Assembly: GCA_027923505.1 (NCBI GenBank)
Contig: BROI01000003.1
Span: forward strand, 558,001-622,000
Source: Mayamaea pseudoterrestris
Lineage: Eukaryota
DNA: 64,000 nucleotides
Direction of reading: 5' to 3'
The translations under genes were made by a program, and so were the position numbers. Of the stretch, positions 4,820-15,617 are shown in pieces; within the stretch, counting starts at the first letter, position 1, and every line of letters starts with the position of its first letter. A model generated the notes under the pieces. That model worked only from the letters and a program-made list of their open reading frames with translations. It was not told the DNA's origin and did no database searches.

Positions 4820-7800
4820 GAGTCGCTATCGAGACGTTACTCTTTGTGCTGACATCATGTATATCAACAAAGTCCCTATGTTGGTGACGTTCTCCCGCAG
4901 CATTCGTTTTGCTACGGTTGAGGTGATTCAAAACCGTACGCTTCCGGTTATGTTGAAGGCAATCGAGTCTGTGTTGAAGATTTACGCACGCGGTGGGTTC
5001 CGTGTCGTCGCGGCTCTGATGGATGGGGAGTTCGCTCCAATGCTTGGCGCGTTGGCTGATCTCGGAGTGGCGCTCAATGCGACATCTGAGGATGAACACG
5101 TTGGCGAAATTGAACGTTTTATCCGTGCCGTGAAAGATCGGGTGGTGCCGACATACAACACGTTGCCATTTAAGCACGTGCCGGCGCGCTTGGTTATCGA
5201 AATGACGAAGTCTGCCGTGTTTTTGTTGAATGCGTTTCGAACGGGTGTTGCATTTCGAAGGATCTCAGTCCACGCACTATTGTGACTGGTCAGACAGTTG
5301 ACTTTAATCGGCATTGCAAGTATGAATTTGGTCAGTATGTGCAAACGCATGAGTCGCACAGCAATGACATGCAGGCGCGCACGATCGGTGCGCTGGCTCT
5401 GCGCCCGACTGGTAATGTGCAGGGTGGGTTTTATTCCCTCCTCAGTTTGTCTTCGGGCAAGTTTCTGAATCGTGGGACGCTACGCCTTTGCCCATGCCTG
5501 ATGATGTCATTGAGCGCGTGCATCGTCTCGCTCGTCAACAGAAGGCCAACCGGGCATCGTGTTCATGGACCGCCACCGTGTTGCGGAGGCTGCTGAGCCA
5601 GTCATGTGGCACGAAGATGACGCCGAGGATGATGATGACTCTGATTATGATGACGACGCTTCTCGCGGTGACGACGACTCTGCCGGCGGAAGCGAAGGAG
5701 TGAATGCGACCGATGACGACGACGACGACGACGATGGTGCTGACGGCGCAATCGAAGGAGTGCCGAACGACGAGGATGGTGGGGGGCCATTGACGGCGAA
5801 CTTGACGACGCGCCAGCCGTGGATGATGGCGAAATTGAAGGAGTGCCCGATGAAGGCGAAATTGAAGGAGTGCCAGCTGCTGCAGACGAAGAGGATTTCG
5901 ATGCGCGCTATGGCCCACGCACTGGTCGGTATGGCCTGCGTGCGCGCAAACCTCAGCTCGTTCGCTCATTTGTTCACGCTCGACGCTGCAGAGGAAGTGT
6001 CGGAGCCACTCGTCACGGCACAGATGAATATGCGACAAGGTTTAAAGGCTTTTGGCGATGCTGGAGTGGAGGCAGTGCGCAAGGAAATGCAGCAGCTACA
6101 CGACAGGCACGTCATGAAGGCAGTCCCCAATGCACTCTGACTCCGCAGCAGCGCAAGGACGCTCTGGCGTATTTGATGTTTCTCAAGCGCAAGAGATGCG
6201 GGACTGTGAAGGGACGCGGATGCGCGGATGGACGCAAGCAACGAGCATACACTGCAAAGGAAGACGCAGCATCTCCAACGATAGCGACAGAGGCCATCTT
6301 TCTGACAGCTATCATTGACGCTATGGAAGGGCGCGAGGTTGCTGTGGTTGATGTACCGGGTGCTTTCATGCAAGCGGAAATGGATGAGTTGGTGCACGTT
6401 CGTTTCACTGGGAAGATGGTGGAGCTACTGTTGGAAATTGATCGCGAGATGTACGAGCCTTGCGTCACAATGGAGAATGGCGAGAAAGTCATGTATGTTG
6501 AATTACTCATGGCGCTTTATGGTACGCTTCGAGCAGCGCGACTATTCTGGGAGAAGTTGTCCGCAAAATTGCTTGAGTGGGGCTTCGAGAAGAACCCGTA
6601 CGATCCGTGTGTGTGCAACAAGATTGTCAATGGGAAGCAAATCACCGTGGGATGGCACGTGGACGATTTGAAGATTTCTGCACGTCGACGTGAGCGTAGT
6701 GGATGAGTTCATCGCGCAGATGGATGAGGAGTTTGGCAAGGAGACTCCAATGAATAAGTCACGCGGAAAAGTGCGACGACTACCTCGGCATGGTATTGGA
6801 CTATACTAAGCCTGGAGAAGTAGCAATCAACATGGTTGACTATGTGAAGAACATCCCGCATCATGCGCCAGACGACATGGATGGAACGGCAGCTACTCCG
6901 GCAGCCAGTCACTTGTTTCAGATATCGGAAAATCCTGTCTGTTGAGCGAAGCGAAGAAGCAGATTTTTGTGACGATTGTGATGCAGTGTCTGTATCTGAG
7001 TCAGCGAGCGCGACCGGATATTCGCACAGCGATTTCTTTCTTGAGCACGAGGCTGCAGCAGCCTGACGAAGACGACTATAAGAAGGCTGCAAGAGTGATT
7101 AAATATTTACGCGGAAGCGTGGACATGGTGTTGACGCTGAAGGCGGACCAGTCCGGGATAGTCCAGTGGTGGGTGGATGCGTCGTACGCGGTGCACCCAG
7201 ACATGAAGGGTCACACTGGTGGAACAATGACACTTGGCCAAGGATCAGTGTACAGTACGTCGGCTAAACAGAAGTTGGTAACAAGAAGCTCGACGGAGAG
7301 CGAAGTTGTGGGAGTTCATGATGTGCTACCGCAGTTGCTGTGGACAGGATATTTTCTGAAGGCGCAAGGTTTCGGGGTCAAAGACACGAAATTGTATCAA
7401 GACAATATGAGTTCAATGCTGTTGGAAAAGAATGGCAGAAGCTCAAGTACAAAGCGCACGCGACACATGAATGTTCGGTACTTCTTTGTGAAAGATCGCG
7501 TGGCAGCTGGTGAAGTCAACATTGAGCATTGTCCGACCGGAGACATGGTCGCGGATTTCTTCACGAAACCATTGCAGGGAGCCCAGTTTGGCAAGCTCCG
7601 CAACCTGGTTATGAATCTGGCCTCGAGCAGTAAGTACTACTCGGCCCAAAGGAGTGTTGAGCATGGATGAGAACCCAAACCGAAGCGGCAGCGGTGACGT
7701 CACGAAGACGGTCACATTTAAGTAAGCGCGGTAAGCGGCAACCGAAGGAGTGGATCGAGGCCACCGGTTTGTCGGTCCAGCTGTAAGCATTGCCAAAACA

Positions 7801-7930
7801 TATGGTATCGGAAAGACGATTGCGTGATAGAACTGGTCGACGGAAGAAATGCTTGTGACAAGGAGGAGACTCAAGCTTACAGCATCAAGAATGATGCGAC
7901 TTGGAATGCAGCAAGATTCATAAAGCAACA
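4820..7930 (+). mobile_element. Ty1/copia (CoDi-like) retrotransposon, 5'-truncated inside integrase and multiply frameshifted
   Basis: IN (DVTLCAD, DGEF, EHVGEIERFIR) precedes RT (ALYG, WHVDD) and RNase H (WVDASYAVH, ADFFTKPLQG); coding signal is split across many ORFs. Confidence 0.93.
7655..7930 (+). repeat. Putative copia 3' LTR
   Basis: Purine tract AAAGGAG then TGTTG at 7655; first downstream CAACA ends at 7930 (an alternative ends at 8007). Confidence 0.5.
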
Positions 7931-8421
7931 TTTTCGTTGAAAATCGGTTGAGTGGTCTGCTTAAAGCCAAGATTACAAAGAAGAGTAACAGTGGTCGTAT
8001 GACAACAAATGTAATATCGCTCTGATGACAGTGTGGTTTCTGGTTTGTTCGCCCATGGTCATCGGGAGTTGCCGACGTGGTTTGAAAGAATTCAAGCGGA
8101 ACGATCTATTCATGAAAAGATTGTGTAAAGATGGTTTTCAATCTTGCTTTATATACATTGTCCGTCGTGGAAGGAAACGATGCGTGCGCAATTTATCCTC
8201 CACTCCTTCCATGTCTATACACATATCAAGAGTACAGTACCAGTAGAAAGGTATACCCATTGCAATTAAATGGTATATGCTTGGTTCTTAGTTTTGGTCG
8301 CGACGACAATGAAATCCGCTGACAATGCCTGCCTTTCACCAGCCATGTCATAATATCACGGAGCGCGACTATGTACAGTCATACAACCGGATTAATAGTT
8401 GGTAGACAAAGCCATCAATGC

Positions 8422-11340
8422 TTAAAACTCTGCGCATTGAACAACTGATTGCTGACTCTCAGTGCAAGTTTCGGGCTCCTTCAAATCAAATTCACTTGTA
8501 AAGTCATTTGCCGCAACCGGCAGGTCCACACAAGCAAAGCTCTCCGACTGGTTTAAGGGCACATCGGCACTTGATCCTGGCAGTACAACAGTCAAATCAC
8601 TAGAAGCGTCACTGAGTTCTTCTGGGCAAGTCGTCACAGCAGCAGACCCTGATTGCATCATGTCGACAGCTGAGTTAGCAACATCGACGTTGTGACCAGA
8701 GTCGCCAGACTGGTCTGTTTGTAGAGGCTCTTCGAAGACAAAGCCTTTTATCGGTGAAACCCCCGCTTGACCAACAGTTTCATTACTTGGTTGTCGAGGC
8801 TGCGGTCGCATTTCGGATCCGTAAAAGCGGAAAAAATAGTTTCCAACAGATGCCAGCTTGCCATGAGCAACTTGAGAAATTAGTTCAGCTGAAATATTAA
8901 GCGCTTTCCCAGCATCAACTAAGGATTGATACTTTGTAAGGACGGTCCCTGTTTCCAAACACAGCCTTTCCACTGGTTTTGAGCCTCCCGCAACACCACC
9001 TGATGCAGGTAGGATGTTTGAGCCCACGTAACGAAAGTAGAAGTCACCAACACGAGCACCACGGTAGACGCGACTAAGAGAGTTGCTGTCAAGCCCGAGC
9101 GCGTCGCATGCGGCCCTAGACGATGGATATGTTGCTGCGACTGTATCCGTGAGTAAACAAACCCTTTCGACAGGCTTCGACTGTACTTTCGGTTTCTTGG
9201 GTTGAGGTAATTGCGTGGCAGTCTTTGGCGTCGGCGTACCCAATTTCAACGTTAGCCCATCCACAGGCATCGACCGAACAATTCGCGTATTCAGTTGATT
9301 AATTGGCGTCGGCATACTCACACCTGACGTTGATACATCGACAGGTATTGACGGTACAGGCATACATTCCGATTGACTTGATTGCGAGGCAGCATTTACC
9401 GTTACCATGTCACCATCCAAGGTTGGCTCAGCAGTTTGTGCACCAGCGGTGAAATGTGGCGGAAGGCGCTTCGATCCTTTAAAGCGAAAAAAGTAATCGC
9501 CAGCTGATTCGCCTTGACCTCGAGCAGCACGACGAATATCATTAATCTTCAATCTAGTAGATCTAGCAGCTTGTGTTAATGAGTCGTAACGACCCAACAC
9601 TTCTCCAGTTGCGAGACTCAGCATTTCAACAGGACGAGGGAAACCATTCGGTACAAACGTCAAATCTTCTTCGAGCATATCAATTTGCGCATCGCCGGTG
9701 GGGACACTTGAACTATTGTAGCGAAAGAAGAAACCGCCAGCCGAATTGACTTTTGCTTGGAGAACGTCATATATTTTGCTTCGAGATATCTTGAGTTGCC
9801 TTGCGGCATCGGAGATGGATCCGTAGCCATCAATTACATCGCCGGTCTTTATACAAAGTCTTTCAATGGATCTTGCGCCTGCTGGATGCAGGTTGCGGCT
9901 AGCCGATGCTGTACTTTCACCCTTCACTTCAGAAACGTTATAGACCTTTCCATCGTGGAAGTCCCATGAGTACCCCGCAACTATCTTGTTTACTTTCGTG
10001 GCTGCCATGCAAGCATCTACAATCAGTCGTGCAGTAATGTCAAGCGATAAGACTCGCGTAGCCATACTAGCCGACGGAAACGTGTTTGTTATGCCAGTCG
10101 ATAAATCTGTGCATGCAACATCACGAAAAGCTTCCGGCAGGGTCTTTCGGTTATACAAATGGGGTCTGCTGCTAATAGGAAATTTGCACGCCGGACAGAA
10201 AAAGCTTTTTTGACACTGCTCCATGACGCATGTCCGGCAGAAGGTATGACAACACACGAGACTCCTGGGCGATTCCATAACGTCTCGTTTGCAAAAGGGG
10301 CAGGAATCTCCAAGCTTGCCCACCGAAACTGCGGAGACTTCGGATGGAACTGGAGACCCGGCATCCCTATTTGAACTAGCGCGCGAAGCTAACGGTGCAA
10401 CAACCTTCTTTCGTGAGCGTGTTGATGCCGAACGCTTCCTTGGAGCGATGGTTGCAGCTGGCAATGACACAGAAGTGGTCTTTTGTTTCTTGGCGTTTGC
10501 GGTAGTCGTTTTTGCCGGCAGGGTTCGCTTCATTGATCCGTCCGCCGACGCGCCTCGCTTCCGCTTTACAGTAGCATTGCTGTCGACGCGCGGCTTGCCC
10601 TTTGCCTCGTGCTGCGCCTTTTGATTCTTTTCTGCTTTGCTCGAGTCTGCGTTGCCCAGCAGTTTGACATCTGTCAATGCCAAATTGACGTCAATTTTGT
10701 CGCCATCGTCAAACAGAATTTTCATCTTGCCCTTTGTATTGACAACGCCAGTCACAACCGTTCCATCGTAGAATTTTCCTCCGTCACTGTCGTGAAAAAA
10801 GACTGCAATGCGAGTACCAGCTGTGATTCTAGTCATATCTAGCTCTTTCCCGTGAACGTAGCTTCCATCGTCCGAAGACGTCCTGACGCTCTCTTCGTCA
10901 TCGTCAAGCAATCGAAACTTTTCCTCAAACAAGCACTCCCAAGTTTCCCCCTTGGTGTCATACTTGATGAGGTACTCATTGGCTTTTCCAAGCTCAATCT
11001 TTTGAACAGTCCCAGCAAACCATTCAGCGTATGGCGTCCAGTAAATCTCGACCCGACTGCCAACCTTGACACGAGCGAGGAGTAATCGTTGTTCCTCTTG
11101 TTCCTTCGCTTCGGCCGTCCCAGCTGGATAAAGAACCCTATATATTTTGGTTGACAACACGATCCAGTCTCGATATCCATTGTCGTAGAGGATTCGCCAC
11201 TGCTTCCCATCGTCGCGATTGTTTACCAACGTGCCTTTGACGTACTCTTGTTGCTCGGGCCACCACACCTCCAGCCGAGTTTTACCCGATTCAAACATGG
11301 GCCCCTTTCGCTCCTTACGTTCGTCCACGGATCGACTCAT
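8422..11340 (-). CDS. Tudor-like x3 + C3HC4 RING + NUMOD1/IENR1-like repeat x5 protein
   Basis: 972-aa ORF; three GxR(L/V/I)xV(W/Y/F)(W/F)...GT(V/L) units; CPFC..CCHTFCRTC..CPAC; five (K/R)xVERLCLxTG..YxS..AA....GxYFFR(F/Y)-type units. Confidence 0.8.
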   Translation of the reverse strand: MSRSVDERKERKGPMFESGKTRLEVWWPEQQEYVKGTLVNNRDDGKQWRILYDNGYRDWIVLSTKIYRVLYPAGTAEAKEQEEQRLLLARVKVGSRVEIYWTPYAEWFAGTVQKIELGKANEYLIKYDTKGETWECLFEEKFRLLDDDEESVRTSSDDGSYVHGKELDMTRITAGTRIAVFFHDSDGGKFYDGTVVTGVVNTKGKMKILFDDGDKIDVNLALTDVKLLGNADSSKAEKNQKAQHEAKGKPRVDSNATVKRKRGASADGSMKRTLPAKTTTANAKKQKTTSVSLPAATIAPRKRSASTRSRKKVVAPLASRASSNRDAGSPVPSEVSAVSVGKLGDSCPFCKRDVMESPRSLVCCHTFCRTCVMEQCQKSFFCPACKFPISSRPHLYNRKTLPEAFRDVACTDLSTGITNTFPSASMATRVLSLDITARLIVDACMAATKVNKIVAGYSWDFHDGKVYNVSEVKGESTASASRNLHPAGARSIERLCIKTGDVIDGYGSISDAARQLKISRSKIYDVLQAKVNSAGGFFFRYNSSSVPTGDAQIDMLEEDLTFVPNGFPRPVEMLSLATGEVLGRYDSLTQAARSTRLKINDIRRAARGQGESAGDYFFRFKGSKRLPPHFTAGAQTAEPTLDGDMVTVNAASQSSQSECMPVPSIPVDVSTSGVSMPTPINQLNTRIVRSMPVDGLTLKLGTPTPKTATQLPQPKKPKVQSKPVERVCLLTDTVAATYPSSRAACDALGLDSNSLSRVYRGARVGDFYFRYVGSNILPASGGVAGGSKPVERLCLETGTVLTKYQSLVDAGKALNISAELISQVAHGKLASVGNYFFRFYGSEMRPQPRQPSNETVGQAGVSPIKGFVFEEPLQTDQSGDSGHNVDVANSAVDMMQSGSAAVTTCPEELSDASSDLTVVLPGSSADVPLNQSESFACVDLPVAANDFTSEFDLKEPETCTESQQSVVQCAEF

Positions 11341-11659
11341 TTGATGTTACAACGAGAGTTGCTCAAAGCAAAACGAGCGAATTGTAGGCAAAAGCCGATC
11401 AAAACCCACGCGATGGAAGAGGGCTCGCATTTCCTCGTGCTCGTCAAGGCGTCACGCTCGTGGTTGTCCGGCGCACTCACATGCATTCGATGGTACGCTT
11501 TGAATTATGCCAAATCATTTTGAGAGTCGCTATGGAGTAGTTTTGGTGCCCGTACGACTTCACGAGGGGCGGCACGAAAGTCCGTTTCCATCACTCCATC
11601 AGTTGAGGTATTCACGTCGACAACTATATACTTTTGTTACCGGTACGCTTGTATGAACA

Positions 11660-12480
11660 ATGTCGACAACTTATGAAGACTATGAGCGAGTAAGTTGACT
11701 TGAAGTGATGCCTTTAAAGAGATGAAATCGAAGTGTGGAAAGGTTGCGACGAGCGAGATATACTTGTACAAGTGACAAGAAACACAAGAACAACACGATA
11801 ATAACCAATCATTATACACTTTCTTTTTATGATCAAAGGAGTACCACGACATTCTCGCGCGCATTCGCAACTTTTTAGCGGGTGCACGAAATTATGCGAC
11901 TCTACAGGAAGCTCAGAGCATGTTGAACGAAGCCAAACGTTGCGCGACGGCCATGCAAGGCCTTGCCGAGGTGGAAGGGAACTCGCTACGCGTCCAGGAA
12001 AGCAGAAATTTGCTGCAGCGAGATATTGGTCCCTTGTCAAGAGAGGTACAGCGGCAGCTGAACGAGTGTCAAACTCAGGAACTCATGGGAGGAACGACCA
12101 TGTCATCAAGCGGCGGAGGAGGCTATCAGCCTCCTGATTTGGAATCAAACTACACGGACATGGATAGCTTGATTCGGTCAAGTGAAGACTTGCTACGGGA
12201 GTCCCATTCTATTATGTATGAGACGGAGCATATTGGAAATACGACTCTTTTGCAAATGGGCCGACAGCGCGAGCAATTGGAGAATACAAATCGTCACCTG
12301 CAAGCTGTGCGCCAGGTGGCCGAGCAAGCGAAGAATATCTTGACAGGCCTTGGTCGTCGAGCTTTGAAGAACAAAATCGCTTTGTACTGCATGATTGCGC
12401 TATTGGCATGGGCGAACCTCTATGTACTGCACTTAATCTACAAGAAGCCCCACAAAGGGAGCAGTGGCGGCAATCATTAA
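11660..12480 (+). CDS. Vti1-like Qb-SNARE, two exons (11660-11689, 11839-12480)
   Basis: MSTTYEDYER|EYHDIL joined across a GTAAGT...AAAG intron in frame; SNARE helix ETEHIGNTTLLQMGRQREQL; C-terminal TM anchor. Confidence 0.8.
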
Positions 12481-12769
12481 TCATGCCACTTGCTGTGCCT
12501 CTACGGCAACGCCGGGTATTTTAAGTGGCAAAAAGTATCAAGACATTTTTATTTTTCTATTTTTCACTGAAGCATGCTACCTTTTTGTTCATCGAGTAGA
12601 CTACCAGGTCGTGGTACAGTACTGTACCGTACATAGCTTGGACTGTCGCAATGAAAACCTGTGCGATGCGCATTGTGCCATCCATCTCGCGCGACGCTTT
12701 CCGACGCAACGATCGATAGTCAAAGCTCATGCAATCTTCGCCGCAAATGCTTTCATTTAACTTGACACT

Positions 12770-13933
12770 ATGGATCAGTCTCGTGTAAAATTGGAGAAGG
12801 TCTATGAGCAGCTAAAGCCGTATACTCCCGAATATGCTTTGCGCATCTCTCCTTGCATTTCCGACAAAGAAACACTGGCCTATCGCTGCAAATGTTCGTT
12901 CCAAATGCTTAGAAACAATGACGGACGTTTTGATTTCGCTGTTCGAAGACAGGGAATACCTGTGATCATTGATGATTTTCCTGTGGCAAATGAGCGCATC
13001 CAACGAGTCATGAAAGGTTTCATCTCAATGCTTAACGACGACGCTTCAATCGACACAGTCTTTCGAAATAACCTCTCGAGCATCACATTCTCAAGTTCTT
13101 GGAGTAACGAAGGAGACTGCGTAGTGACTTGCAACTACGACAATCTGATACTAGATCTCGTCCGATGGAAACAACAAGCTTTAAAAGTGTGTCACGAGCT
13201 TGATCTGTCACAGTTACTTTGTCGCTCACGAAAATGTGTCTTGTCAGCCTTTGAACACGAGGCCATTCTGCGAGACCGAATTTTCATTGAAGTTGCTGGC
13301 CATGACGACGACGAGTGGAAAGTCTTGGTTGGCGATGCTGGTCAAATCGGTCGAGGAATCCCCGTGGACTACGAAAAGCCAGAGTCTGCCTTTTACCATC
13401 CCAATGTTCGGGCAATGCTGAAGGCACTACAATGGCAACTTGACCAAATGTCGCGCATCAGTCGTCAGATTTCAACTCGCAAGCTAAGACTACTTGAGCT
13501 ATACTGCGGATGTGGCGCCCATACAGTTGCGCTAGCCAAGTCTGGCATGTTCGAGTCAATTGTTGCCGTCGAGCTGGATCAGCGATTGGTGGAGAAGGCT
13601 AGACGAAATGTTCAACTGAATGAGCTCGAGAACATATCAATTGTGTCAAATGATGCAGCTCTTTGGGCTGAGAAAAACTCGAATGCCTTGTTTGACGTGA
13701 TCCTCGTCGATCCTCCCAGGCAAGGCCTCGCAGCAAGCGTTTGTAAAATGGTCATTAATGCATCCACTTGTGACAACATGCTATACATTTCTTGTGGATG
13801 CGAGGCGCTGGTATGTGACCTTCAGATATTGGCCACGGCTTTTGATGTTGTCGACTGCACGATCGTGGATTTATTTCCGACCATGAAGGGTGTCGAGTCT
13901 TTAGTGCATTTACACCGACGCAAAACTATCTGA
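12770..13933 (+). CDS. RNA (uracil-5)-methyltransferase, TrmA/TRM2/RlmD family
   Basis: YRCK, ELYCGCG SAM motif, DPPR, YISC catalytic Cys, DLFP..VE. Confidence 0.85.
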   Translation: MDQSRVKLEKVYEQLKPYTPEYALRISPCISDKETLAYRCKCSFQMLRNNDGRFDFAVRRQGIPVIIDDFPVANERIQRVMKGFISMLNDDASIDTVFRNNLSSITFSSSWSNEGDCVVTCNYDNLILDLVRWKQQALKVCHELDLSQLLCRSRKCVLSAFEHEAILRDRIFIEVAGHDDDEWKVLVGDAGQIGRGIPVDYEKPESAFYHPNVRAMLKALQWQLDQMSRISRQISTRKLRLLELYCGCGAHTVALAKSGMFESIVAVELDQRLVEKARRNVQLNELENISIVSNDAALWAEKNSNALFDVILVDPPRQGLAASVCKMVINASTCDNMLYISCGCEALVCDLQILATAFDVVDCTIVDLFPTMKGVESLVHLHRRKTI

Positions 13934-14039
13934 GTTGGTCCTTACATATTTGAGCTATCTAAGCGAATGATCGCATCGAGCGCGCAGTACAAAGGACAGT
14001 TAGATAATAATTTGTACTGGTCTGCGCAATCACTTAGAT

Positions 14040-15617
14040 TTATTTTGTAAAATTGCCCAATCTTGTCAACCATCTTCCAACGTCGACCGAGTACTGTGCA
14101 AGATAGGCGTCCTTTGACTGCTTGTAGTTGCGAACTTTAAGCGTGTGGTGAGGAGCAATGGTAACTTTGGCGCTGACTATCATTTGAGCGGCTTTACCAT
14201 CGAAGTGCAGGTCGAGGAGTTGAGCATTGTGCCCCAAATCCAACGAAATGGCTGGCAACACGGGGACAAACATTCCAAATCCTGGATTGAGCGAGATTTC
14301 GAGCCCTGGAAATGTGAGCACGTGACCTCGACTTGTGAATCCAAGGCCGGAGCGAACCTCAAACTCAAGGATCTTGCCGAAAACAGTCTTGGCCGCGCCC
14401 CGGCAGGATATTTTGCCGTTGGGAAGGATAACAATAGTGTCAATACTGATTCGAACAGCCTTGGTGCCACGAAGTTTAAGAATACGAGCAAGTAGATTCT
14501 TGAGTCCGTTTCGTATACACCGGGAATCGACAAGATCCTCCTGTGTGAAAGTTATATTGCGCCCGTGAAACTCGAACTGATTTAAGTAACGGTGCCCTCG
14601 GATGGGAATTGGGCTGGGAGTGAGTGACCATAAACCCAAATTTAGTCGACTGACTTCGATCCGCCCCTTGTGCATTTGGATTGCTCCAAATACAATGCGA
14701 TCAAAATCAACACTTGCGTCACAAGCAAATCGTCCCTGCACCAGGTCCAGCGTATTGCTTTGTGGGTGACAATTGACGCGCAGGTTGACATGTGACCCTT
14801 GCGACCACCGATCAAGGAGGCCTACTAAAATGTTTTGCACCCATGGGCGTGTTATTCTCACAAAAGGCGAGCCGCCTTCGACTGTAGACTCGACTGGGCT
14901 GGAGGAGGCGGCTGACAGTTGAGTCGTCGTGAGCTGTGCTATCTCAGCATCAAGAGCACTGGCTATCATGCCGGATGACTCTTTATTGATCGACATTGGA
15001 TCAGCAGCGGCGAACGAATTTATTTGATAAACCGGTAGATCTTTCACCGAACAAACAATCGAAGCAGACGTTGCTTCAACTTGTTGAGACGTTTGGCCGT
15101 TTCGCGCAGTCATAGGATGTAGTGACATGTGCATGCTTTCAACCGAATCATTCGCGGGAACAGAGGTTGGATCTACCGGTAGAGTATTTCCAAAGGTCAA
15201 GATATCCAATTTATGCGACAAGTTGTGCCGCAATCGGCTTTCCTGTTCCTTCGTCAAATCAAACGGCCGACCCATCAAATTCAAAGCTTGCTGCAAATCT
15301 ACTAGCTCTTGGTGAGCAACAGCAGCACTCATTTCAAGTCCTTTTCGTCGGCTCCGTCGTCGAAAGACTTTTCGTAAAACACGCTGATGCCATCCCGTCG
15401 AGTCTGGGGATGACTGGTGATAGTCCTGACCACTGCCATCGGCAATGGCTGCCGCCATGTGATGACTTGTCGTTGTTCGTCGGATTAAAGCATTCGTTCG
15501 ACGATTTCTTGCGCCAGTGGTTCCGCCAGATGTTGGTGGAACAATCGTCCAACTGCTAGACGGACAAGCAAGCAAAACTGCGGCTGCTGTAGTGGCTGCG
15601 ATCCGCTTGATAGTCAT
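14040..15617 (-). CDS. Signal-peptide protein with possible DUF2993/LmeA-like C-terminal domain
   Basis: Long ORF; likely start MTIKRIAATTAAAVLLAC; C-terminal beta-rich region (LVQGRF...ITFTQEDL) resembles DUF2993; family call tentative. Confidence 0.5.
   Translation of the reverse strand: MTIKRIAATTAAAVLLACPSSSWTIVPPTSGGTTGARNRRTNALIRRTTTSHHMAAAIADGSGQDYHQSSPDSTGWHQRVLRKVFRRRSRRKGLEMSAAVAHQELVDLQQALNLMGRPFDLTKEQESRLRHNLSHKLDILTFGNTLPVDPTSVPANDSVESMHMSLHPMTARNGQTSQQVEATSASIVCSVKDLPVYQINSFAAADPMSINKESSGMIASALDAEIAQLTTTQLSAASSSPVESTVEGGSPFVRITRPWVQNILVGLLDRWSQGSHVNLRVNCHPQSNTLDLVQGRFACDASVDFDRIVFGAIQMHKGRIEVSRLNLGLWSLTPSPIPIRGHRYLNQFEFHGRNITFTQEDLVDSRCIRNGLKNLLARILKLRGTKAVRISIDTIVILPNGKISCRGAAKTVFGKILEFEVRSGLGFTSRGHVLTFPGLEISLNPGFGMFVPVLPAISLDLGHNAQLLDLHFDGKAAQMIVSAKVTIAPHHTLKVRNYKQSKDAYLAQYSVDVGRWLTRLGNFTK

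Follow-up and report, generated by a model that had tools for sequence, protein, structure and literature searches.

A Tudor-RING-NUMOD protein of the diatom Mayamaea pseudoterrestris, a putative chromatin E3 ligase with homing-endonuclease-type repeats

We describe here a predicted protein of 972 residues encoded within a 64,000-nucleotide stretch of DNA from Mayamaea pseudoterrestris (contig BROI01000003.1, positions 558,001 to 622,000; this whole stretch is referred to as the window). The protein joins three Tudor-like units (T1 to T3), a basic linker, a C3HC4 RING finger and five NUMOD-type helix-turn-helix (HTH) repeats (N1 to N5) in a single uninterrupted open reading frame (ORF), which occupies coordinates 8422..11340 of the minus strand including the stop codon, contains no internal stop and is intronless (Table 1). 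Judging from its domain content and from the closest functional analogy, we consider it probable that this is a nuclear, host-owned and non-mobile diatom chromatin protein, acting as a RING ubiquitin ligase (E3) that is guided by both DNA sequence and histone marks in the manner of UHRF1.

An initial annotation made from the sequence alone had proposed three Tudor-like units, a basic linker resembling a nuclear localization signal (NLS), a C3HC4 RING and five repeats of the NUMOD1/IENR1 type with no nuclease motif, and all of these elements are located in the one 972-residue frame where it had placed them. Its description of the repeats holds in fold and, in the whole-protein scan, in Pfam, with the qualification that N1 is divergent, tied to the RING, and conserved in its recognition helix.

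Four canonical NUMOD-type repeats and one divergent unit

The repeat region consists of four canonical NUMOD-type units (N2 to N5) and one divergent unit (N1). When the whole protein is compared with Pfam it exceeds the cut-offs both for PF22083 (I-HmuI_NUMOD-like; 59.1 bits, cut-off 27) and for PF07453 (NUMOD1; 44.8 bits, cut-off 22.8); scanned singly, only N2 passes, and N3 finds no match. A profile built from 320 foreign units gives N2 to N5 scores of 52–68 bits and N1 a score of 10.0, compared with a maximum of 7.9 bits among 500 shuffled versions of the protein; because these foreign units were first gathered with a profile from N2 to N5 of the window protein itself, this test is not fully independent. 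Among the NUMOD-bearing relatives that were scanned, 90 of 102 have Pfam NUMOD matches of their own at E≤1e-4.

In an AlphaFold2 (AF2) model of residues 398–850, built from 27 sequences, all five units fold as beta-beta-alpha-alpha-beta with predicted local confidence (pLDDT) of 84–97 by block, and the linkers fall below 50. A structural search against PDB representatives placed I-HmuI first (1u3e; Z 8.9, 65 residues), the Paulinella protein sCTP-23166 second (8b6e; Z 7.0, root-mean-square deviation [rmsd] 1.6 Å over 51 of 52 residues) and the DNA-binding domain of I-TevI third (1t2t; Z 5.9), ahead of the next row at 4.1; in all three alignments the matching part of the model is N2. Foldseek likewise ranks 1u3e first and 8b6e second, with weak E-values (5.7e-3 and 5.6e-2). 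The repeats thus have the fold that the initial annotation had assigned to them. In the ESM Atlas the NUMOD part falls near viral and bacterial NUMOD clusters at 0.77–0.81, below 0.9 and so leads only.

No HNH, GIY-YIG, NUMOD4 or other nuclease family is found by Pfam in the whole protein at E≤1. Readings of the ORF as a chance frame, a pseudogene or a homing endonuclease were rejected, the frame being intact in two alleles or strains, the family conserved, and the protein nuclease-free.

Alignment of 328 canonical units from 96 proteins shows that the core positions are conserved and that the helix-2 positions lying between them are the most variable. The available text of a study of the Paulinella DB-sCTPs (PMC10319021) reports that DNA-proximal residues are similarly variable in those proteins, and that sCTP-23166 was shown experimentally to bind double-stranded DNA at nanomolar concentrations and has the same topology as NUMOD repeats. 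By analogy with I-HmuI, I-TevI and sCTP-23166, the canonical repeats are predicted to bind double-stranded DNA through helix 2.

Three Tudor-like units precede the basic linker

The N-terminal units are confirmed as Tudor folds. T1 to T3 form three five-stranded beta-barrels in an AF2 model of residues 1–400 that was built from 17 sequences (block pLDDT 63–91), and Foldseek with this region returned 93 PDB matches at E≤1e-3, headed by the SETDB1 triple Tudor (2.4e-6) and Spindlin1 (2.7e-6). The overall rmsd to SETDB1 and Spindlin1 is about 17 Å over approximately 230 columns, so the match is a local one, in which the single barrels fit and their mutual arrangement does not. A profile of T1 to T3 run against PDB chains found 7de9_A at an E-value of 5.9e-10, SETDB1 at 3.6e-6 and 53BP1 at approximately 3e-3. 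T2 is 66–67% identical to its counterparts in two relatives, P0005 and P0006 (relatives are numbered with the prefix P, the window protein being P0001).

According to the available text of two studies (10.1101/2024.10.15.618488; 10.1101/2022.05.28.493846), 7DE9 is the Tudor domain of Arabidopsis PDS5C (RDM15) with H3K4me1 bound, held in a cage of three aromatic rings. The diatom units share with the PDS5C/RDM15 and MSH6 Tudors the pattern G-x-R-[IV]-x-V-W-W-P ... Y-x-G ... Y-D-D-G. Sequence alignment pairs three putative cage residues of 7de9 (the second W in VWW, the second Y in YYKG and the Y in IYDDG) with W, F and Y in T2 and with F, Y and F in T3; T1 has W, V and Y, the V standing where 7de9 has the second Y of YYKG, together with a Y one place earlier.

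A RING finger joined to a conserved N1 unit

The RING finger has the canonical spacing C-x2-C-x12-C-x-H-x2-C-x2-C-x10-C-x2-C, and its eight zinc ligands are invariant in 9 of 9 proteins that carry Tudor, RING and NUMOD units and in all 15 of the RING-N1 modules compared. The residue between the first two cysteines, which is the position that contacts the ubiquitin-conjugating enzyme (E2) in active RINGs, is hydrophobic (F, L or I) in all 15 modules. The best phmmer match in the PDB is the RING of EHV-1 (1chc; E 9.5e-6), and weak matches include RNF168, BRCA1 and a UHRF1 chain (9lpk_A; E 1.1e-3). Several relatives score above the zf-C3HC4 cut-off of 21 (P0016 at 26.2, P0020 at 29.1 and P0005 at 23.2), and P0025 exceeds that for zf-RING_2 with 39.2. 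In the ESM Atlas the N-terminal part lies near RING clusters at 0.77–0.83, again below 0.9 and leads only.

N1 is weak by sequence (13.0 bits in Pfam, in addition to the low profile score given above) and is defined instead by a pattern of its own, F-[RK]-x-V ... S-A-S-A-A ... I-[VI]-x-A-C ... W-x-F, in which F405, V408, S423, S425, A427, A443, C444, W459 and F461 are invariant in nine proteins and helix 2 (I-[VI]-x-A-C) is conserved. A unit of this type follows the RING directly, after a short spacer, in 20 of 22 RING-bearing relatives, a count that leaves out P0002 as well as P0038, which did not fit the pattern used; the two relatives with a RING and no full N1 are P0096, which ends within N1, and P0108, which has none. 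Because helix 2 is conserved in N1 and variable in the canonical units, N1 probably performs a constant job together with the RING rather than variable DNA reading. Prediction of a complex between the RING and N1 as two separate chains gave a score of 0.00, in a run without controls.

The flexible regions are less conserved. The basic linker contains the runs KRKR, KKQK, RKR and RSRKK, and is only 15–29% identical in P0005, P0006, P0016 and P0020; in composition it is NLS-like, and it may serve as an NLS. The linker at residues 625–720 contains 21 serines or threonines and 14 prolines among its 96 residues, and holds a 15-bp difference between alleles (see below). The C-terminal tail is at most 17% identical to P0005, P0006, P0016 and P0020 and matches no Pfam family at E<0.1; that it is an activation or interaction region is only a guess.

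Table 1. Features of the Tudor-RING-NUMOD gene and its surroundings in the window
Feature	Residues	Coordinates	Strand	Observations
Tudor-like unit T1	17–76	11113..11292	-	AF2 barrel; 7de9 aligns to residues 21–64
Tudor-like unit T2	87–149	10894..11082	-	AF2 barrel; Agenet 22.8 bits (<27)
Tudor-like unit T3	168–233	10642..10839	-	AF2 barrel; BAHCC1-like Tudor 28.1 bits (cut-off 28)
Disordered basic linker	231–342	10315..10650	-	26 K/R of 112 residues; pLDDT<50
C3HC4 RING finger	347–385	10186..10302	-	Motif spacing, invariant ligands, PDB RING matches
N1, divergent NUMOD-like unit joined to RING	405–462	9955..10128	-	beta-beta-alpha-alpha-beta, pLDDT>90
N2, NUMOD1/I-HmuI-like HTH	490–545	9706..9873	-	Alone, PF22083 33.6 bits (>27)
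N3, NUMOD-like HTH	569–624	9469..9636	-	Foreign-unit profile 68.1 bits; fold pLDDT>90
Disordered Ser/Thr/Pro-rich linker	625–720	9181..9468	-	Between N2-N3 and N4-N5; pLDDT 35–43
N4, NUMOD-like HTH	721–775	9016..9180	-	Alone, PF22083 16.9 bits; foreign-unit profile 51.9
N5, NUMOD1 HTH	788–843	8812..8979	-	Alone, PF07453 22.7 bits (cut-off 22.8); foreign-unit profile 64.9
Acidic Ser/Thr-rich C-terminal tail	844–972	8425..8811	-	21 D/E, 4 K/R and 25 S/T of 129 residues
V-SNARE/Sec20-like gene		11920..12480	+	Upstream of the ORF, opposite strand
tRNA (uracil-5)-methyltransferase gene		12770..13933		Upstream of the ORF, opposite strand
242-aa ORF		6942..7670	+	Some 750 bp downstream; without a Pfam family at E≤1e-3

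A family of diatom proteins with RING-N1 modules

At E≤1e-3 a HMMER scan of 1.84 billion cluster representatives found 528 proteins, of which 136 reached E≤1e-10 and 30 reached E≤1e-30. Architectures were assigned with our own unit profiles and a RING pattern to 151 proteins, namely the query and the 150 relatives listed of these 528. The largest classes have NUMOD units only (72 of 151) or Tudor units only (43 of 151), followed by Tudor plus NUMOD (13), Tudor plus RING plus NUMOD (13, of which 10 have the three in that order), RING plus NUMOD (6), and Tudor plus RING (4), such that a RING is present in 23 of the 151. Of the 104 NUMOD-bearing proteins, all but P0001 and P0002 were scanned with Pfam, and 13 of these 102 have nuclease-type modules, with NUMOD4 and/or HNH_3 in eight and GIY-YIG types in five; Tudor and RING are absent from all 13. 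Genuine homing endonucleases thus enter the search among its weaker matches, and the strongest matches are free of nuclease modules.

The relative P0005 (978 residues) is orthologue-like, with 41% identity overall and 29–67% in its Tudor, RING and NUMOD units; its basic linker, long linker and C-terminal tail are 29%, 16% and 17% identical, respectively. More generally, the architecture is conserved at 25–41% identity across diatom genera, and the domains are conserved more than the linkers. An alignment query restricted to RING-N1 found 27 proteins at E≤1e-6, seven of them with names. Five of the named proteins have the full RING-N1 module and come from Attheya sp., Seminavis robusta, Cylindrotheca closterium (two proteins) and Mayamaea; P0168 carries only the JGI name 'hypothetical protein', and a protein from the grass Digitaria exilis matches just 24% of the query. 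Every organism-named relative with the RING-N1 module is thus a diatom, the diatom assignment resting on these RING-N1-bearing members. One Tudor-array relative is from the brown alga Laminaria. Named members are annotated as 'expressed unknown protein', 'unnamed protein product' or 'RING-type domain-containing protein'.

Searches for viral relatives gave no confirmed match: tblastn with residues 481–850 found nothing in a phage collection at E≤1e-3, and none of five pattern matches in a single-protein scan of IMG/VR was confirmed.

Several individual relatives have features of their own. The two Cylindrotheca closterium proteins P0160 and P0161 (800 and 805 residues) each have a longest contig of 229,731 bases and are possibly tandem or nearby paralogues. 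Other NUMOD fusions include a PHD finger (P0146) and sigma-70 region 4 (P0110), and P0031 combines Tudors and NUMOD with a weak AP2 match (27.4 bits, below the cut-off of 33.3). Eight proteins of 677–1122 residues (P0065, P0070, P0071, P0079, P0100, P0120, P0125 and P0126) have N-terminal NUMOD4 and/or HNH_3 followed by 4–11 units (by our unit profile) and score up to 300 bits with NUMOD1. Arrays of this length are unusual for nuclease-linked proteins, and the lineage of these eight is a candidate donor of the diatom arrays.

Proposed function and alternative explanations

The function that we propose joins these parts as follows. The basic linker would carry the protein into the nucleus, where the N2-N3 and N4-N5 pairs, separated by a flexible linker of 96 residues, would read two extended DNA half-sites, each canonical unit placing helix 2 in the major groove in the manner of I-HmuI, I-TevI and sCTP-23166. 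The Tudor barrels would bind a methylated histone lysine, with H3K4me1, the ligand of the closest solved relative, as first candidate, and RING-N1 would bring in a charged E2 and so transfer ubiquitin to a nucleosome or chromatin factor close by. The DNA-reading parts would be derived from homing endonucleases without their nuclease. E3 activity, DNA binding and histone reading are all predictions from the domains that the diatom protein carries.

A number of observations weigh against this proposal. The window RING lies below the Pfam cut-offs (zf-RING_2 24.1 against 27.3, zf-C3HC4 18.5 against 21), and the RINGs of BMI1 and the PCGF proteins, which are partners of another RING and not the catalytic one, are among its closest phmmer matches in the PDB at about 1e-4. 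The residue after the last RING cysteine, which is a cationic 'linchpin' in many active RINGs, is basic (K or R) in only 8 of the 15 modules. N1, with its conserved helix 2, may not read DNA sequence at all. The Tudor units are marginal in Pfam, T3 reaching 28.1 bits against a cut-off of 28 in the whole-protein scan, T2 only 22.8 when scanned alone, and T1 alone finding no match; moreover, the choice of H3K4me1 is a guess from one relative.

Some of the same observations would fit a sequence-specific scaffold for transcription or chromatin that is not itself a ligase, in which RING-N1 is a dimerization or partner module like those of PCGF and BMI1 and the protein recruits other complexes. The sub-threshold RING, the presence of BMI1 and PCGF1/4/5/6 RINGs among the best solved sequence matches, and the inconstant cationic position are as expected for a scaffold, and the acidic tail could be its activation region. 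Many relatives are also RING-less (the 72 with NUMOD units only, 43 with Tudors only and 13 with both), which implies that the targeting parts function without a RING. However, 15 of 15 modules keep the full set of eight zinc ligands as well as the hydrophobic residue that separates cysteines one and two, which we take to have a role in E2 contact, and the best single PDB match is a RING of the EHV-1 ICP0 type. We regard a scaffold of this kind as unlikely, though it is the likeliest of the alternatives.

A broader proposal is that the Tudor-RING-NUMOD proteins and the NUMOD-array proteins surrounding them form a diatom-specific, array-based DNA-address system that marks or silences transposons and satellites and co-evolves with them. 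Individual units would recognize a few base pairs each by means of hypervariable positions in helix 2, arrays of 2–11 units would spell out long sites, and the branch with Tudors, RING and NUMOD units would be a single-polypeptide counterpart of the vertebrate KRAB-zinc-finger, TRIM28 and SETDB1 axis. We offer this as a speculation that is rather unlikely to hold.

The Tudor matches raise a further alternative, a ligase coupled to DNA repair or replication, in which Tudors of the PDS5C/MSH6 type anchor the protein at gene bodies bearing H3K4me1 and the RING, like that of RNF168, BRCA1 or RAD18, modifies histones or repair factors with ubiquitin. The closest solved Tudor is that of PDS5C (7de9, 5.9e-10), 53BP1 Tudors match at about 3e-3, RNF168 and BRCA1 are among the weak RING matches, and the available text of one study (10.1101/2022.05.28.493846) ties plant Tudors of the PDS5C type to repair proteins. 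We nonetheless think this improbable. Arrays of sequence-reading HTH units in tandem point to fixed addresses on DNA, for which a damage-response ligase has no need; Pfam finds no repair domain in the protein at E≤1; and the Tudors also resemble those of SETDB1 and Spindlin, which are readers in transcription and silencing.

Finally, NUMOD modules typically occur in HNH and GIY-YIG homing endonucleases, NUMOD4, HNH_3 or GIY-YIG is carried by 13 of 102 NUMOD relatives, and the ORF at 6942..7670 looks like the C-terminal end of a Ty1/copia-type polyprotein, but a decaying or mobile-element-borne homing-endonuclease remnant, or a retroelement or viral insertion protein devoid of host function, is very hard to reconcile with the absence of a nuclease domain in Pfam, the lack of Tudor or RING in all 13 nuclease-bearing relatives, an ORF intact in two alleles or strains, an architecture conserved at 25–41% across diatom genera with domains ahead of linkers, housekeeping genes on the flank, and no confirmed relative in IMG/VR or the phage collection.

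Relationship to known systems

We return to the proposed chromatin-associated E3, for which the nearest functional analogy is UHRF1 of animals and ORTH/VIM of plants, which likewise unite methyl-lysine recognition, DNA reading and a RING in one polypeptide. The diatom protein is not a member of that family: SRA, PHD and UBL domains are all absent (none at E≤1 in Pfam), its DNA reader is a tandem series of NUMOD-type HTH units that presumably acts by sequence and not by methylation state, and its histone reader consists of three single barrels of the PDS5C/SETDB1 kind.

For the DNA reader the closest structural and evolutionary precedent in eukaryotes is the DB-sCTP group of Paulinella chromatophora, of which the diatom protein is again not a member. 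The two have the same beta1-beta2-alpha1-alpha2-beta3 HTH, with 33% identity to sCTP-23166 (8B6E) in the Foldseek alignment, and both are eukaryotic, nuclease-free descendants of homing-endonuclease HTHs in expanded families with variable helix-2 residues. However, DB-sCTPs are standalone single domains of about 50–60 residues that are imported into the chromatophore, whereas the diatom protein has five units together with Tudors and a RING in 972 residues. The repeats also match, in sequence and fold, I-HmuI (HNH; 1U3E), I-TevI (GIY-YIG; 1I3J/1T2T) and the families PF22083, PF07453 and PF20987. The two endonucleases use one HTH beside other DNA-binding elements, in contrast to the five units of the diatom protein, which moreover lacks HNH, GIY-YIG and NUMOD4 and is the product of a nuclear eukaryotic gene with chromatin domains.

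The Tudor region has its closest solved sequence relative in PDS5C. In PDS5C and MSH6 a single Tudor is attached to a cohesin or mismatch-repair protein, whereas the diatom protein has three in tandem. The best fold matches to the three-barrel region are the SETDB1 triple Tudor and Spindlin1, but the diatom protein has neither the SET domain nor the MBD of SETDB1, and does not reproduce its barrel arrangement.

The initial annotation did not recognize the architecture from characterized proteins, and we found no description of a Tudor-RING-NUMOD protein in the full-text literature searched, subscription papers being outside its scope; the architecture is not unique to this gene, however, and belongs to an uncharacterized family already annotated in databases. 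Nor did this literature contain a paper on NUMOD1 together with diatoms, or on diatoms with homing endonucleases, Tudor and RING. In the text available to us, papers on NUMOD1 and 'nuclease-associated modular' domains concern homing endonucleases, phages and fungal genomes, a GIY-YIG phylogenomics paper mentions Numod1-3 solely as endonuclease modules, and a term search of the accessible text of a stramenopile transcription-factor survey (PMC4222949) returned no mention of an endonuclease-derived, NUMOD or Tudor family. The domains and their logic are already known, and it is their combination, and the apparent scale of the diatom NUMOD-array proteins, that is new to the literature searched.

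Homing-endonuclease HTHs appear here as a widespread, multiplied and nuclease-free module of diatom nuclear proteins, with one conserved branch that includes histone readers and a RING. The inventory of DNA-binding regulators in diatoms, which are major primary producers, is thin. If the proposed function is correct, these proteins would constitute a new lineage-specific class of chromatin regulator and a second, independent eukaryotic domestication of the NUMOD-type HTH after that in Paulinella, and would connect ubiquitination with both DNA sequence and histone marks within a single protein; the modular arrays, with their variable recognition positions, could also be of interest as a natural DNA-targeting scaffold.

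Alleles and genomic context

The window protein is 97% identical to P0002, full length and colinear, a 967-residue 'hypothetical protein MPSEU_000258400' of the raphid pennate diatom Mayamaea pseudoterrestris, showing that the window is diatom nuclear DNA and that the ORF corresponds to an annotated intron-free gene model. The differences between the two are concentrated in the long linker and the C-terminal tail, the long linker being 88% identical and the domains 96–100%. The GC content is even along the window (0.46–0.52), the genes flanking the ORF are ordinary housekeeping genes, and unit profiles detect no other Tudor or NUMOD units outside the ORF in any of the six frames of the window.

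Four sequencing runs from one study (X1 to X4) contain the locus; none is on record as RNA. Contigs from X1 and X2 cover 30 of 30 bins of the region 7800–14500. Run X2 has a 15-bp gap at 9342 that corresponds to five residues absent from P0002, with the frame intact in both forms, and its 1900-base contig differs from the window at 31 further letters. X2 and P0002 have the 15-bp deletion and scattered further differences from the window in common, and the window belongs to this species as a second haplotype, allele or strain.

A contig from run X3 joins 11689 to 11839. The 149 bases that it skips have GT..AG ends, lie a short way upstream of the V-SNARE/Sec20-like ORF and are probably a 5' intron of this divergently oriented neighbor; the junction indicates that X3 contains a spliced form. 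Over the Tudor-RING-NUMOD ORF the X3 contigs extend from 8730–9402, 9566–10262 and 10757–11392, with no joint of minus-strand polarity among them, and give a weak hint of a transcribed, unspliced message. In run X4, one contig of low depth (4.1, with 28 letters on its shorter side) skips 196 bases at 9148–9345. The skip has GT..AG ends on the plus strand, antisense to the ORF, with donor GTGAGTA and acceptor ACAG|G, and in the sense direction it would disrupt the reading frame; either an antisense transcript spliced across the N3-N4 linker or an artefact of assembly could account for it.

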